Assembly (NCBI GenBank): GCA_963820525.1
Contig: CAWGAA010000001.1
Location: 800,001-864,000, forward strand
Direction: 5' to 3'
Source of the DNA: an uncultured Spirochaetota bacterium
GTDB lineage: Bacteria > Spirochaetota > Spirochaetia > SZUA-6 > Fen-1364
DNA length: 64,000 bases
Made by a program: the position numbers. Shown one piece after another: positions 33,001-39,000 of the stretch (positions within the stretch are counted from its first letter, which is position 1; each line of letters starts with the position of its first letter).

Positions 33001-36000
33001 AGCCTCCTCCCGTGCCAGTAGAGGCTGACACCGCGAGTTCCTCTCTTGAGCACGATGCAGCCAAGAGACATCCGATCGATCAAGCCGAAAAGATCGGCGT
33101 CAGCAAGGGAACGATCCGCTTGCGCATGCCCGTAAGCGAGCGCGGCGGCCTCTAGTTCCGTGGGGGTTACAAGCCAGCAGCCCGAAATCGATCCTGCATG
33201 GCGCGCCGCTTTTTCAACGGAAACAGGCTCGAAAATCACTCGAGCGGCGGCACCATAGCGCTCGAGAAGGCCATGCGTGAGTGTGGAGGAGAGATTCCCG
33301 TCCAACACGAGCATGTCCGCTTGAGAAACACGGCCGATCCGCGAGACCACCCAGTCAAGCTCCAGGCCATTCTCCACGGCTCGCATGTCCGAAGCAGCCA
33401 CCTTCAGCCTCCCGCCTTGCATGAGCGCCAAATAGAGGGAGGGACCCGCATCCTGAATCTTTCTGAGAACAACCCCGGGATCAGCGGCAAGGGCATTTTC
33501 AGCGGATGACGAGATGAGATCCGTTCCTATCGCGGAGATGAACAGCTTGGGAGGCTCGAGGGCCCTGTAGATGTTGTAGCCGACGCCTCCAAGGCGGATG
33601 CTGATCTCGCATGGGTTGGACGTTCCATCGCGAAACGCCTCACGAGCGGCAACCATGTCCACGCTCACGGCACCGACGACCCAGATCATACCGCATCCCA
33701 CCATGCGCAATGCAGTTCGCGATGTCAACCACCGCGCCTCGTCCCGGTTGATCATCGATCTCTGGTCATTTAGATTAGTCTGTGGGCACAGGAACGAACA
33801 GGTGCGCGGCGGGTATGTCTTCGCGGTTTGGCGAGTGGGCTGACGTAATGGCCTGCCAGGCGGAGACGATTTCACGGACGGGCGACCGCAGATGCCTTTT
33901 CAGTCCTGCGAGCGGGGATTCTATGGCTGCCTAAAGTCTGGCAAGGAGGCGCGGTGAGCCCGGACCAGGGAAGCGGACCGTCAATCAGCGAAAGCGCGCT
34001 CATCGAGAGAATCGGCTGGCTCATCAACCTGCGCTGGCTTGCGGCCGGGGCACTTTTTATTGCCATTGCGGCAGCACGCCTGCTTCTCGGCCAGGACGTC
34101 CCCTTCCTCCCCCTGCTGACGGGAAACCTCCTGCTTGCCGCTTCCAACTTCGGCTATCTTTTCCTCTTCAGAAGGCTTGAACCAGGCAGGACGAGTGCGC
34201 CGGCTCTTGCCAATGCCCAGATCACGCTTGATCTTCTCATCCTGACCTACCTCGTGCACCTCTCGGGCGGAATCGAAAACCCCTTCGTCCTTTTCTTCAT
34301 CTTTCACATGGTCATCGCCAGTATCCTTCTTTCCAATCGCGACGCGTATCTCCAGGCCGGATTCGCCACCCTCGCCACGGCGCTCGCCACGGTGGGCGAA
34401 CAGTCGGGAATCATCCGCCATCACACAATCGAGGGCCTGCTGCTTCCGTCCGGCGGCCCAAGCGGCTGGGCCTGGCTGGCGCGATGGAGCGTCCTCTCCT
34501 CCACGCTGTTCATAACCGTGTATCTCAGCACCACCATCGTGAACAGACTCCGCAGTAAGGAGAGAGAGTTGGAGGAGCTGAATCGACGGCTCCTGGAAAA
34601 CGACCGCGTAAAGTCGAGATACGTCATGACCGTGTCCCATGATATCCGCGGCTCGCTCTCCGCGATCCAGTCGAGCCTGCGGGTCGTTCTGGACGGCTAT
34701 ACGGAACCGATTCCGCAAAAGGCACGCGAAATGATCGAGCGCGCCGAGCTTCGAAGCGAGCAGCTCCAGCGCTTCGTGAAGGATCTCCTGGACCTCTCCC
34801 GGATGCGCGCGGCCGGCCAGATGACCAGGGAGATGATCGACGTGACCGAGCTGTTGGCAGAGGCAGTTGCTCGATCACAGTCTCTCCTGGAAGAGAAGAG
34901 TCTCTCGGCCTCAGTGGAGGATCGGGCCGAAGACTCGACGTTGTGCGCCAATCGCGAGGCTCTCGATCATCTGCTCGAAAACCTCCTGGGCAATGCCATC
35001 CGCTATACGCCGCGGGGGGGAAGGATCTCTCTGGAGCTGGAGGATGCGGCAGCCCCGGGGTGGCTCCAGCTCCACGTGCGCGATACGGGCATCGGAATTC
35101 CCGAGGAGGAGCTTCCCCACATTTTCGAGGATTTCTATCGGGCGAAAAATGCACGGCAGTATGTGCAGGAGAGCACGGGTCTGGGCCTCTCCATCGTCAA
35201 ACAGATCGTGGAAGCCCATGGAGGCGGCGTTCGCGCGAAGAGCGAGCCTGGCGGAGGGACGACCATCACGGTCAGCCTGCCCGGGAAGAGCCTCTCCTGC
35301 GGCGAGCGGTGAAGAGGCGCGGCCCATCTGCCTGCAGCGGGCATTAATCGGAGCGATGGAGCTTCAGTCGGATTTCAGCAGTGAGCGCAAGGTAGCAACG
35401 AGGATGCCGGCGTCGACGGGCTTCTGGAATATCCCCGCAAGCCCGAGCTCCCGAGTGCCGATGTTGTAGCGTACGGCGTCCCCCGCGGCGCTCAAGAGGT
35501 AGATGGGGCAGGTGAAGCCGGCCTCCTTCAGGCGCGAGGAGACCTTGCTCCCTGCATCAACCGTCTCCATCATCAGGTCCAGGAGGATCGCATCCGGCTT
35601 CACCGCGTGAGCGATCTTCAACCCCGATTCTCCATCGGCCGCCTCTCCAACGGCGAAACCCGCTGATTCCAACACGATGCGCAGCGCGGCACGCACGTCG
35701 GGGTCGTCGTCGACGATCAGAATGGTCTTGGTCCGTGCCTCAGTCTCCGCCATAAATGCCTCTCTCCCCTTGCGCAGAAGAACATCGAGGAAGGCGACGC
35801 TCAAGGCAGCGTTTCGCCGCGCCCCCCCGCTCAAGCCCTCTCCCACCCCAAAATGATACCCGCGAACCCCGAAAAGCCATGCGGGCGGCCGCGCGCCGAA
35901 GCTCGCTTCGCAGACGGCCAGAAGATCCCGCGGGCCGAAGAGATGCGTGGTGAATGACGTCACGGCTCGTTGATGGCCGCCCGCGCTCACGTTTTCCCGC

Positions 36001-39000
36001 CGAATGGGCGTCATGCTGAACGGCGCGGGTCCCTTCCGCGCCGCATCGATGAAGAGCGCGGCCCGCGTAGCGGCAAGCTCAGCACATTGCTCCAGCGCCG
36101 GCTGAAAGGCCGTCTCAACGATGACGAGCCCCGGATGGAGCCTCTCCAGCTCCTCGGCAACGGCAGGCCCGAGACCGTCATCGCGCCGTCCCGGGTTGCC
36201 GTAGCCTAGAATCAAGAGTGGCGGGCCGCCATTACCGTCATGCCGGGAGGCGCCATGAACGCGGATCCACCCATCTCCCTCACTCATTCCTGCCCGCGGA
36301 CCTTCCTGTCCAGGACACGGCCGCCCGCGTCCACGATCTCCGCTTCGAGCCCCATGCTGCCGAGCGCATGTGTGGCGCAGCTCAGGCATGGATCGAATGC
36401 GCGGATGGCCACCTCCACCTTGTTCAGCAGCCCCTCCGTGATCTTTTTTCCCGAGAGCTCATCCCGCGCCACGGCCTGCACTGCCCTGTTCATCGCTTCG
36501 TTGTTGCTCGTCGTGGAAACGATGAGATTCGCCATCTCCACCGTGTCGTCCGGGCGGACCCGGTAGTGGTGGAAGAGCGTGCCGCGAGGCGCCTCGATCC
36601 AGGAGGCTCCCTCGGATCTCCGCGTTCCGGTGACGATGAGGTCCGCTCCCTGAAGATCGGCATCGTTCAGGAGCTCCGTGATCTTCTCCGCCGCGTGGAG
36701 CGCCTCGATGAGCCTGGCCCAATGGTAGGCAAGGGTCATGTGCACGGGCCTTCCGCCTCCCAGGGAGATGAACTCGCCCCGCTCTTTCTCCGCCAGCGGG
36801 GTGTCGATGAAGTCGCAGGTATTGAGGCGTGCCAGGGGGCCGACACGGTACCAGCCCTTCTCCTTTCCCAATGAGAGGATGAAGGGGAACTTCATGTAGC
36901 TCCACGGCCGCGCTTCCTCGCGGATCACGGTGAGGTACTCGCTGGGGGGCACCTTGTCCAGGATGATCTTTCCCTCAGCATCCTTGGCCCGCAAGAGGCC
37001 GTCGTAGAAGTCCAGAGCGCCGTCCCGGCGAACGATGCTCAAGAAGTTGCCCTCGAACCCCGCGAAGGCGCGGAAGTAGGGCTCGTTCTGGCGGAAAAGC
37101 CTCTTGAACAGGTCGAGGGCCTCCTGCGCCCAGGCGATCATGTTCTGCGTCTGAGGGAGAAGCTCGTCGCGCTCCTTCAGGGAGAGGTTCTTGTTGATCC
37201 CGCCCGGCACAGCGCCCGTGCCATGGATCCTCTTTCCCGCGGTGGCGCGGATGACCTCCTGACCGAATTTCCGCATCAGCACGGCCTTTCGGACGAGCTC
37301 GGGATTCGCGAGCGCCAGCCCCACGACGTTTCGCGTGGAGGGCGCGCTCTCGAATCCGAGGAGAAGGTCCGGCGCGGCGAGGTAGAAGAAATGCAGGGCG
37401 TGGGACTGGAAGACCTGGCCGTAATGCATGAGGCGGCGCATCTTTTCAGCCGTTGGGGTAAGGCGATCCGCGCCCACGACCACATCCATCGCCTTGGCGG
37501 CGGCCAGCAGGTGGCTGATGGGGCAGATCCCGCACAGCCGCTGCACCATGACGGGAACCTCCCAGTAGAGCCGCCCCTGGACGAAGCGCTCGAACCCTCG
37601 AAACTCCACGATGTGGAAGCGCGCGCGCGTCACCTTGCCCGCGTTGTCGAGCTGGATCGTGACCTTGCCGTGGCCTTCCACGCGCGTGACGGGATTGATA
37701 ACGACCTTCATTCCACGGCCTCCCATGCTCCAGCCCTCAGTCGTACTTGATCATCCGGTAGGCCAGATCGATTTTCGCCCCGGAGAGAAGCGCGGTGAGG
37801 AAGTCCCAGAGTGTGTCCCCCGAGGGCGGACAACCAGGAAGAAAATAGTCGATCTTCACGACTTCATGGCTGGGATACACCCGGTCGAGGAGGATGGGGA
37901 TATCGGGGTCATTGGGCAGGACCCCATCCGCCACCGACGGGCCCTTCAGGTACGCCTCCTCCAGGCATTCGGAGAGCGGCACCATGTTGCGCATGGCCGG
38001 CACGCCACCCGTGAGGGCGCATTCGCCGACCGATACGAGGATGCGGCAATGCTCGCGAAAGGCGCGAAGCACGTGAACGTTCTCGTCGCTGGAGCACCCT
38101 CCCTCGATGAGCCCCACGTCGCAGGGACCGCTGAACTCCTTGATGTCGTCGAGGGGAGACTTGTCGAGGTCCACGAGCTCGATGAGGGAGAGAAGCCGCT
38201 CGTCGATGTCGAGCAGGGACATGTGACAGCCAAAGCAGCCCGTCAGATGGGCCGTCGCGATCCGCGCCTTACCCATTGGTCTTCCTCTTTCTCTCGATGT
38301 CGGAGCCGATGGGCTCGTTGTCGTAGCGCCTTCTTCCGTACGGGATGCGGTAGCCGAGCCTCTTCACCATGAGGCACCCCGTGGGACAGATGCGCGCCGC
38401 GCGGTCTATTGCGGACATCACCGTGTCCGAGAGACCCGCTTCGGAGTCCACGGCGAGCTCGGTATGAATTCCCCTGCCGACAAAGGCGAACACGCCCTTT
38501 CCGTCAAGGTCGCGCGAGGCGAGCACGCACCTGCCGCACAGGATGCAGCGGTTCCTGTCGACGAAGACGTCGGGATGAGATCCATCGACGGGGCGCCGGG
38601 GATAGAAATAGGGATCCGTCGGGGCGGTCATCCCGAGGCGGTATCCCATGGCCTGAAGCTCGCAGGAGCCGCTCGCTTCGCAGAAGGGGCAGAAGTGGTT
38701 GCCCTCGACGAACATCATCTCCACGATCCGCCGCCTCTCGGCGTTCATCCCCGGCGTATCGTTTTCAACCACCATCCCTTCTCCCGCCGTCATGGTGCAC
38801 GAGCTTGCCGGCCTGCCGTTCACCAGCACGGTGCAGATGCGACAGTGTCCTCCGGGGGCGAGGTCGGGGTGATAGCAGAGCCGGGGGATATAGACGCCGG
38901 CCGCATCCGCGGCCTGGAGAATCGTCTGGCCCTGCTCCGCCTCGATCTTTACCCCATCGATGATGAAGTGAACCCTCTGCTCGCTCACTCTGTGCCCCCC

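Follow-up and report, generated by a model that had tools for sequence, protein, structure and literature searches.

The window, a 64,000-nucleotide stretch of DNA from an uncultured Spirochaetota bacterium, carries a hydrogenase operon in which the final gene, following hoxEF, hoxU, hoxY and hoxH, encodes both a protease and a receiver (Table 1). At positions 35364-36287, a HoxW-type endopeptidase and a C-terminal CheY-like receiver (REC) domain are genuinely fused in frame; as the preliminary description had proposed, TIGR00072 (residues 25-164) and a complete Response_reg domain (residues 189-300) lie on one polypeptide. The gene starts at 36287, where it overlaps the hoxH stop codon (ATGA), and ends at 35364. 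Judged from domains, the large and small subunits and a diaphorase module resembling NuoE, NuoF and NuoG represent the content of a Group 3d hydrogenase (Hox-type, NAD-linked bidirectional). HoxU scored 171.7 bits with model PRK07569 (cut-off 333) and HoxE 71.9 bits with PRK07571 (cut-off 224), i.e., below threshold, with the family being right in both cases. The neighbors named earlier (NiFeSe_Hases, Oxidored_q6, HoxU-like, NuoE+NuoF-like and a convergent histidine kinase) were all found as described. The operon holds another fusion, that of HoxE to HoxF, the relatives of which align over approximately residues 26-609.

Table 1. Positions of the hoxW-REC gene, its parts and its neighbors in the window.
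Feature	Position	Strand	Remarks
orphan sensor histidine kinase, 452 aa, convergent	33954..35312	+	6TM sensor, HisKA, HATPase_c; candidate partner
hoxW-REC fusion gene	35364..36287	-	307 aa; TIGR00072 + Response_reg on one polypeptide
CheY-like receiver, residues 189-300	35388..35723	-	Pfam PF00072; D193-195, D237, S266, K289
in-frame junction ATG (Met179), retained REC start codon	35751..35753	-	aligns with starts of separate REC genes
purine-rich Shine-Dalgarno-like run AGGGGAGAGAGG in coding sequence	35759..35770	-	ends 5 nt before junction ATG
endopeptidase domain (HybD/HycI/HoxW type), residues 25-164	35796..36215	-	TIGR00072, Foldseek, HybD alignment
hoxH, [NiFe] large subunit, 480 aa	36284..37726	-	NiFeSe_Hases
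HoxH C-terminal extension, 27 residues after DPCLSCATH	36287..36367	-	expected endopeptidase substrate
hoxY, small subunit, 179 aa	37737..38276	-	Oxidored_q6
hoxU-like diaphorase subunit, 239 aa	38269..38988	-	Fer2_4, NADH-G_4Fe-4S_3, Fer4
hoxE-hoxF fusion (NuoE-like + NuoF-like), 616 aa	38985..40835	-	2Fe-2S_thioredx, Complex1_51K, NADH_4Fe-4S

HoxW removes a C-terminal extension from the HoxH precursor once this is loaded with nickel. Such an extension was conserved in 21/21 aligned HoxH sequences, and hoxH orthologues with 61-69% identity lay upstream of every related hoxW. All 20 fetched loci have the order hoxH-hoxW-REC, and the 18 that extend far enough also have hoxEF, hoxU and hoxY upstream. 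The claim of a conserved family that closes hox operons and keeps both sets of catalytic residues is borne out. No published description of the HoxW-REC fusion was found in the literature searched, in agreement with the earlier statement that the family is undescribed.

The protease half scored 65.7 bits with NCBIfam TIGR00072 (HybD/HycI/HoxW, peptidase A31), above the cut-off of 47.45, and aligned with positions 1-138 of the 145 in the profile. The fusion protein gave no match to Pfam HycI (PF01750) at E<=0.001, and the precomputed Pfam annotation of the 120 best relatives lists PF00072 alone, whereas the proteases of the Chloroflexota operons do match HycI. The missing HycI match probably explains why the fusion is absent from Pfam-based architecture tables. 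A Foldseek search with the AF2 model returned 1cfz (E 2.6e-8), 5zby and 5ttx, indicating a HybD-like fold. In the alignment to HybD (1cfz), the putative metal ligands D37, D81 and H115 fall on E16, D62 and H93, the metal ligands of HybD. The genome encodes four TIGR00072 proteases, one beside each of its four [NiFe] large-subunit loci, and only the Hox protease carries a REC.

For the receiver half, Pfam PF00072 covered profile positions 1-110 of 111 with 71.7 bits (threshold 30.2). The E value was 7.1e-20 instead of the 2.5e-20 given before; the earlier TIGR00072 match was recovered. Over residues 188-304 the AF2 model shows the strands and helices of a (beta-alpha)5 fold, mostly with pLDDT >85, and the top Foldseek matches were the receivers of Spo0F, PhoP and DivK. 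For the whole fusion, AF2 gave two confident domains joined by a low-confidence junction (pLDDT <50 across residues 178-183), and REC was not predicted to dock on the protease in a fixed position (pTM 0.56).

Of 8000 candidates scored in a homologue search, 618 matched at E<=1e-5. The best 120 have 251-307 residues and cover 80-100% of the query, and these lengths and coverages equal those reported earlier. The residue counts in the preliminary description were exactly reproduced in an alignment of 120 sequences (the query and P0003-P0121, leaving out P0002, which is identical to the query). In the protease, G30, N31, D36 and D37 were each conserved in 117/120 sequences, and D81 and H115 in all. 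In the receiver, D193-195, the phospho-acceptor D237 and S266 were invariant, and K289 was present in 119/120. The metal ligands and the phospho-acceptor pocket are thus intact, and from these residues both halves look functional. That the fusion is merely an artefact of assembly or gene calling in the window can be practically dismissed, and we found no argument in its favor. A public metagenome contig of 2978 bases spans 35300-36400 including the domain junction with 7 substitutions and no indel, and an 820-base contig from a second run covers 35300-35947, again without an indel at the junction; one of these two runs may be the source sample of the window. Other genomes of the phylum sample contribute 10 complete ORFs in which the frame is likewise open, as it is in 6 MAG loci; no stop or frameshift at the junction was present in the independent assemblies compared, and 118 further fused proteins occur among the matches listed.

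The fused family proposed earlier stands, but the unit is not defined by the fusion. Among 401 genomes sampled from the phylum, 11 others have the fused gene and 15 have the same protease and REC subfamily as two adjacent genes; one genome has a Hox operon lacking REC. The fused and separate forms are intermixed in the REC tree, where at least 7 changes between them have good support. Such frequent interchange means that the covalent linkage is not essential. As read from these comparisons, the conserved unit is a pair of genes, hoxW and, behind it, a single-domain response regulator of its own, and the fusion is one of the states of this pair. The unit closes operons of cytoplasmic NAD(P)-linked [NiFe]-hydrogenases. 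Repeated fusion of hoxW and REC would be expected of proteins acting together. Fused and split RECs share the hallmarks D-x-M-M-E-x-x-D-A-G and G-x-x-G-x-F-Q-K-P, the retention of which suggests a fixed partner surface, and the split RECs also keep the receiver pocket residues.

The phylum range is narrower in our samples than first described. At E<=1e-35, hoxW-REC was found in 0/301 genomes on the Planctomycetota side and in 1/301 on the Verrucomicrobiota side, the latter (G790) in split form. The source names among the relatives do include one fused protein from Brocadiia and stand-alone RECs from Hydrogenedentes. In Chloroflexota, the genes for a protease, a REC and a histidine kinase are consecutive in a sulfhydrogenase-like operon, and their stop and start codons overlap.

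The domain junction retains the start codon of the REC gene. Met179 is kept in 117/120 fused proteins (it is gone in the other 3), while positions 172-178 and 181-186 are free to vary. The Shine-Dalgarno-like run in the window has a purine share of 0.92 over 12 nt (gene mean 0.51) and a duplex energy of -7.2 kcal/mol (gene mean -3.9), and an equivalent was found in 17/17 fused loci read. The amino acids encoded by the run vary, but among residues with purine codons. For the Gly at the junction, 9/11 loci use GGG, a codon with a gene-wide share of about a quarter. Because start codon and run are both retained, free REC is probably still produced, and the gene probably yields HoxW-REC as well as free REC. 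The latter may be the working species, which weakens the case for gating in cis.

The adjacent histidine kinase is a candidate partner only. It is homologous to the kinases encoded right after the protease and REC inside the operons of Chloroflexota loci L014 and L008, with 31-32% identity in the sensor and 37-39% in the core. On the other hand, among the loci read beyond REC no kinase was consistently adjacent: one lies next door only in the window, L121, L131 and L007, and these are of unrelated types. Five genomes with the fused gene have nothing homologous to the sensor domain of the window kinase, and four genomes have this kinase but no hoxW-REC. Neither the window kinase nor any other kinase type tracks the unit across genomes. 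The kinases beside the unit include membrane proteins of 6TM and 6TM-GAF type and, at one locus, an [FeFe]-hydrogenase-like sensor kinase; the signal may accordingly be related to redox state or H2.

These observations suggest that a cellular signal controls the Hox hydrogenase after its synthesis, and it is plausible that HoxH maturation is controlled through phosphorylation. A sensor kinase responding to a redox or H2-related signal would phosphorylate the receiver, which would contact HoxW, covalently linked or in trans, and its phosphorylation state would determine if, or at what rate, pre-HoxH is cut and the hydrogenase finished. We consider it quite possible, though somewhat short of an even chance, that the phosphorylation state of REC governs HoxH maturation in this way through contact with HoxW. 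Gating is supported by the presence of the substrate, the conserved linkage and the occurrence of REC on the Hox protease only, by the homology of the window kinase to the Chloroflexota operon kinases in both sensor and core, and by the recurrence of the unit, split in the phylum of G790 and with another hydrogenase type in Chloroflexota. It is weakened by the lack of fixed docking in the AF2 model, the one operon without REC and the inconsistent adjacency of a kinase. If correct, it would add a post-translational checkpoint on the hydrogenase to transcriptional control.

A serious rival, to which we give a substantial chance that is nevertheless clearly below even, is that REC is translated from its own start codon and acts as a free single-domain response regulator, with a target other than HoxW. 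The retained internal ATG and run speak for a role of free REC, and they fit such a target equally well. REC could then regulate the completed hydrogenase as one of its subunits, like HoxI, or serve a two-component pathway controlling hox expression as a phosphate sink or connector; the fusion would be a tolerated by-product of the loss of a stop codon between tightly packed genes. The near-constant junction Met amid variable positions, the purine-rich runs with their GGG codons, the repeated fused/split changes, the many stand-alone RECs with 57-80% identity to that of the window and the lack of fixed interdomain packing all agree with this. However, REC always lies directly after hoxW and nowhere else in the operon, in two hydrogenase groups, the fused proteins lacking the internal Met depend on the fused form, and the runs are only moderately strong (top 4-27% of positions within their own genes) and come from related loci.

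The signal might also run in reverse, with the protease domain reporting the maturation state to REC: HoxW bound to unprocessed nickel-loaded HoxH would alter the gain or loss of phosphate by the attached or bound REC, and the level of unfinished hydrogenase would feed back on a two-component pathway, e.g., one controlling hox, hyp or nickel uptake genes. Conserved linkage, a REC without output domain and the same-operon kinases of Chloroflexota are compatible with this, but nothing supports it specifically, the objections arising from a free REC apply here too, and no conserved DNA-binding regulator was found nearby in the loci read; we regard it as unlikely. Finally, REC could be an unphosphorylated pseudo-receiver that serves only as a structural, dimerization or solubility module, in line with the missing conservation of a cognate kinase beside it. 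Pseudo-receivers usually lack the acidic pocket and the phospho-acceptor Asp, Ser and Lys, whereas here these are retained in 119-120 of 120 sequences and in the split forms, making this explanation very improbable.

HoxW is reportedly the HoxH-specific endopeptidase of the NAD-reducing hydrogenase of Cupriavidus necator, and cyanobacterial HoxW has that role for the bidirectional hydrogenase. The window gene resembles these in its position directly after hoxH in a hoxF-U-Y-H operon, in profile, fold and the three metal positions, and in a substrate with a C-terminal extension after DPCxxCxxH. Known HoxW proteins consist of one domain, whereas here about 120 residues of receiver are attached at the C-terminus or, in the split form, encoded by the following gene. 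HybD/HycI of E. coli and Thermococcus (PDB 1cfz, 2kml, 5zby) share the fold and positions E16/D62/H93, but their sequences are only weakly similar to this one (E 0.044 for 1cfz), and they serve other hydrogenase groups and lack a receiver. HoxI, the cyclic-nucleotide-binding-like regulatory subunit of the C. necator soluble hydrogenase, is likewise a small regulatory protein encoded directly after hoxW at the operon end; unlike the window REC it is not a receiver, and it is not known to be linked to phosphorylation.

Receiver-controlled enzymes such as CheB, PleD, WspR and RpfG carry REC at the N-terminus, which in CheB is packed against the active site. The window protein likewise combines a receiver with an enzyme domain whose activity phosphorylation could switch, but here the output is a single-substrate maturation protease. 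Its layout is not that of CheB: REC is C-terminal, and AF2 predicts no packing. CpdR and RssB are receiver proteins that steer ClpXP proteolysis. The proposed role is similar in that a receiver, free or as adaptor, would decide protease action on a given substrate, although the step would consist of one cut that matures a metalloenzyme and not of ATP-dependent degradation. In HoxJ-HoxA and HupT-HupR, hydrogenase genes are under two-component control by H2-sensing regulatory hydrogenases. These pairs share with the window unit two-component signaling dedicated to a hydrogenase, but they act on transcription via NtrC-type regulators, whereas the window REC lacks a domain for DNA binding and is coupled to a maturation protease.

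The start codon of the fused gene hoxW-REC shares the bases ATGA with the stop codon of the large-subunit gene hoxH, so that the two genes overlap. NCBIfam model TIGR00072, the hydrogenase maturation protease profile, matches residues 25-164 of the product with 65.7 bits (cut-off 47.45), and Pfam Response_reg matches residues 189-300 (E 7.1e-20), while the Pfam HycI model gave no match at E<=0.001. Upstream lie the genes for the hydrogenase and its diaphorase-like partners; relatives of the HoxE-HoxF fusion align over approximately residues 26-609 in every related locus reaching that far. 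The large subunit ends in DPCLSCATH plus 27 residues, the type of extension removed by hydrogenase maturation proteases. Each of the four [NiFe] large-subunit loci in the genome has one of its four TIGR00072 proteases beside it; the Hox protease alone carries a receiver, and the other three have the usual single domain. Scans of window positions 33700-41200 gave one promoter-like site (1.0 expected) and seven terminator-like sites (4.5 expected), none between the convergent ends of hoxW-REC and the neighboring kinase gene. Among the sequencing runs found to contain the region, none of RNA was listed.

Positions of the features discussed, in the window or in the coordinates of the related locus
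Feature	Sequence	Position	Strand	Remarks
hoxW-REC	window	35364-36287	-	307 residues; start ATG at 36287, reading frame ending at 35364
[NiFe] large subunit	window	36284-37726	-	directly upstream of hoxW-REC
Small subunit	window	37737-38276	-	upstream of hoxW-REC, same strand
HoxU-like protein	window	38269-38988	-	upstream of hoxW-REC, same strand
HoxE-HoxF fusion (NuoE+NuoF-like)	window	38985-40835	-	616 aa; 2Fe-2S_thioredx, Complex1_51K, NADH_4Fe-4S
Histidine kinase	window	33954-35312	+	six-helix membrane domain; converges on hoxW-REC, stop codons 52 bases apart
Signaling gene cluster	window	40815-49838	+	divergent from hox operon
Second receiver	window	44459-44863		
Patch rich in mobile elements	window	14237-31460		
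IS30-like genes	window	18186-19202, 21488-22504		identical
IS110 transposase	window	30183-31460		
Indigoidine-synthase-A-like and PfkB kinase genes	window	31924-33875	-	
681-aa histidine kinase	L007	2845-4890	-	
827-aa frame	L128	7946-10429	-	
Genes following REC	L129	10552-15100	+	

An AlphaFold2 model built on an alignment of 120 sequences has two domains predicted with confidence (pLDDT 82.7 on average and over 85 in most 10-residue blocks), with a pTM of just 0.56 and low confidence at residues 1-21, 101-114 and 178-183. Foldseek retrieved the maturation peptidases HybD (1cfz), HycI (5zby) and a third one (5ttx) with the N-terminal half, and the receivers Spo0F, PhoP and DivK with the C-terminal half. 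In a weak sequence alignment (E 0.044), D37, D81 and H115 fall on E16, D62 and H93, the metal ligands of HybD. The residue conservation reported in the preliminary description was reproduced in an alignment of 120 sequences (the query and P0003-P0121): the GN..DD motif in 117/120 proteins, D81, H115, D193-195, D237 and S266 in 120/120, and K289 in 119/120. The catalytic and phospho-acceptor residues are intact; phosphorylation of REC, and its effect, we infer.

The fusion is real and conserved. A protein search with hoxW-REC gave 618 matches at E<=1e-5 among 8000 scored candidates, and the best 120 are proteins of 251-307 aa with 80-100% query coverage and 48-100% identity. Their fullest names are 'hydrogenase maturation protease' or 'CheY-like chemotaxis protein/Ni,Fe-hydrogenase maturation factor'. 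The protease part alone has 3391 relatives in a library clustered at 50% identity; because the best 150 of these include only one protein long enough for a fusion (P0040, 285 aa), the fused proteins form one tight group. The ESM Atlas holds two near clusters, of 283 aa (64 members) and 256 aa (73 members), with Spirochaetota as the commonest phylum. A locus scan with two patterns inside REC returned 80 loci, most of them ordinary response regulators since both patterns sit in REC; the useful ones were L001-L004, L006, L007, L008 and L014, and L050 was rejected as it contains receivers only.

What is conserved is also the wider unit, in which a REC gene directly follows hoxW, either fused to it or as a separate gene. 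When the whole protein was searched against 401 genomes of the window's phylum, the fused state was found as a full-length, stop-free match in 10 other genomes, with one more match truncated by a contig end, and the split state in 15, with hoxW of 156-184 aa followed by a receiver of 123-137 aa. The order hoxH-hoxW-REC holds in 20/20 loci fetched with long flanks, and hoxEF, hoxU and hoxY lie upstream in 18/18 that reach far enough. A search limited to shorter proteins gave 342 matches; of the 120 listed, almost all are receivers that stand alone, with 103-135 aa and 48-80% identity to the window REC, and a few carry names from Hydrogenedentes and Spirochaetes. The stand-alone protease P0170 and the stand-alone receiver P0139 (79% identical) each have 27,734 bases given as their longest contig, probably the same one. 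A natural comparison case is G316 of the same phylum (L156, G316:C10:188000-198000), which has hoxEF-U-Y-H-W and no REC of the HoxW-linked subfamily within 5 kb downstream of hoxW.

We examined the relation between both states in a tree of 171 REC sequences, of which 120 are fused, 11 come from split loci and 40 are stand-alone receivers on contigs of 5 kb or more. The 11 from split loci all fall into a clade of 13 stand-alone sequences; in the other clade, all 120 fused sequences are intermingled with 38 stand-alone ones. The tree requires 25 changes between states, at least 7 of them forced by well-supported branches, although assembly frameshift errors could explain some of the stand-alone calls. 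With shuffled labels the average was 44 changes, and every one of 500 shuffles required more than 25. Genome G080 is a single contig, and at its locus L104 (G080:C1:860678-864034) hoxW overlaps by 38 bases, in a different frame, with a REC that has 66% identity to that of the window. Either a fused gene was split recently there or the assembly has an indel error.

The fused genes have also retained the start signal of a separate REC gene. In 17/17 fused loci read as DNA, an in-frame ATG opens the receiver part, preceded at 5-10 bases by a purine-rich run of the GGAG, GAGG or GGGGAA kind, and both coincide exactly with the start codon and Shine-Dalgarno sequence of separate REC genes. The junction Met (Met179 in the window protein) is kept in 117/120 fused proteins, while the flanking residues are free to vary and are mostly Gly, Glu, Lys and Arg, which have purine codons. 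For 14 loci, the predicted anti-Shine-Dalgarno pairing at the junction is -5.5 to -7.8 kcal/mol, compared to gene means of -2.8 to -4.4, and lies in the top 4-27% of positions in the gene. The 12 bases before the ATG are 75-92% purine (gene means 51-58%), and the junction Gly codon is GGG in 9/11 loci, whereas GGG makes up about a quarter of the Gly codons in the same genes. The loci are related and hence not independent trials; taken together, the conserved Met, pairing energy, purine share and GGG bias point to selection on the RNA, and the fused gene probably still yields free REC, of 129 residues from Met179, by internal initiation. The low model confidence at residues 178-183 fits a junction that is a former intergenic spacer, now translated.

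In the genomes sampled, the unit belongs mainly to the window's phylum. Searches at E<=1e-35 detected it in 0/301 genomes of a Planctomycetota-centered sample and in 1/301 of a Victivallales-centered one (G790, hoxY-H-W-REC, split form); one fused protein carries Brocadiia bacterium as source name. A more distant version occurs in the Chloroflexota loci L014 and L008, whose leading genes encode a sulfhydrogenase-like, NAD(P)-linked hydrogenase; its subunits have HydA, HydD and ShyB as best models, with scores below those cut-offs. There the hydrogenase genes are followed by a HycI-type protease, in L014 by a 136-aa receiver sharing the D-x-M-M-D/E-T motif, and in both loci by a kinase with 6TM, GAF, HisKA and HATPase domains. 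The protease, receiver and kinase genes of L014 overlap stop-to-start, and in L008 a stop interrupts the receiver frame.

The window kinase resembles these Chloroflexota operon kinases in both its membrane sensor (31-32% identity, E 1e-23 to 1e-24) and its catalytic core (37-39%, E 1e-46 to 1e-49). As a general partner of hoxW-REC it found no support in co-occurrence across genomes. Five other genomes of family f19 have full-length orthologues (43-47% identity) and two further ones have partial matches, never adjoining hox. The sensor domain of the window kinase had no homologue (E<=0.001) in five genomes with the fused gene, and four genomes that carry the kinase are without hoxW-REC. The window kinase is therefore a reasonable candidate partner within its own genome and not a general one. 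Among the loci read beyond REC, a kinase directly adjoins it only in the window, L121, L131 and L007, and these kinases are not mutual orthologues; L128, L133 and L140 have kinases at 3-5 kb, and the remaining loci have transporters or metabolic genes there.

Several neighboring signaling genes deserve mention. The window kinase has no adjoining response-regulator gene of its own. L007, a Spirochaetaceae MAG, encodes 1.5 kb from its fused gene a 681-aa kinase with Fe_hyd_lg_C ([FeFe]-hydrogenase large-subunit-like), FeS, HisKA and HATPase_c domains, possibly an H2 or redox sensor; a second kinase frame with its own receiver lies in between. In L128, an 827-aa frame 2.5 kb from hoxW-REC combines HisKA, HATPase_c, a pyridine-nucleotide disulphide oxidoreductase and rhodanese, possibly two genes joined by our crude ORF calling; in L138 only the oxidoreductase-rhodanese part is present, next to REC. 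The window's divergent cluster consists of three ORFs without Pfam match (432, 243 and 508 aa), a 134-aa receiver, a PAS histidine kinase (801 aa) and a hybrid PAS-PAS kinase with receiver (706 aa); its two kinases, at 44877-49838, are possible further phosphodonors for HoxW-REC. With 27% identity over 51 residues, the 134-aa protein, the second window receiver, was rejected as a relative of the HoxW-linked receivers.

How REC acts can be read in different ways. Its position directly behind hoxW is the same with two hydrogenase groups, which together with the repeated fusion favors a working contact with HoxW, and we tentatively regard direct control of the HoxW step by REC as plausible. Almost as likely is that free REC acts on another target and the fusion is incidental: the REC start is retained, splitting is frequent, and no docking between the domains is predicted. 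Smaller shares of probability go to reverse signaling and to REC being a pseudo-receiver.

In a broader scheme, a two-component phospho-signal would govern the final, irreversible step of [NiFe]-hydrogenase assembly. The receiver, produced both fused to HoxW and free from the internal start, would permit or stop the cleavage by which stored, nickel-loaded pre-HoxH becomes active enzyme. As a whole we consider this scheme possible, though less likely than not. If true, it would be a post-translational checkpoint for metal-center maturation and a new output class for response regulators, and would offer a handle for switching the bidirectional hydrogenase on and off in engineered hosts. To our knowledge, hydrogenase maturation proteases are held to be constitutive helpers triggered by their substrate, and the signal control known for hydrogenases is transcriptional. 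That several lineages and two hydrogenase groups have the protease linked to a receiver points to post-translational control, acting where the large subunit becomes committed to assembly.

Both domains, and receiver-controlled enzymes as a principle, are already known. The pairing of a receiver with a metal-center maturation protease is undescribed within the literature searched, where we found no account of the fusion or of a hoxW-adjacent receiver; the combination may stand, uncommented, in a response-regulator census or in InterPro architecture tables. The present analysis adds the split form, the internal start, the kinase-containing Chloroflexota operon and the kinase homology.

In L129 (genome G263), REC is followed by genes for a NuoG-like/molybdopterin protein and a second NuoE+NuoF-like fusion, which may be a formate-dehydrogenase-type module sharing the neighborhood. 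In the mobile-element patch of the window, a GH113 glycosidase gene lies between the two IS30-like genes (338 aa, with HTH_38 and rve), and DUF772 and DDE transposases are present as well. The hox region has a GC content of 0.60-0.65, which falls to 0.43-0.48 at 29-31 kb. The IS110 element is separated from the sensor kinase gene by the PfkB kinase gene and the indigoidine-synthase-A-like gene, the latter of the pseudouridine-5'-phosphate glycosidase family.
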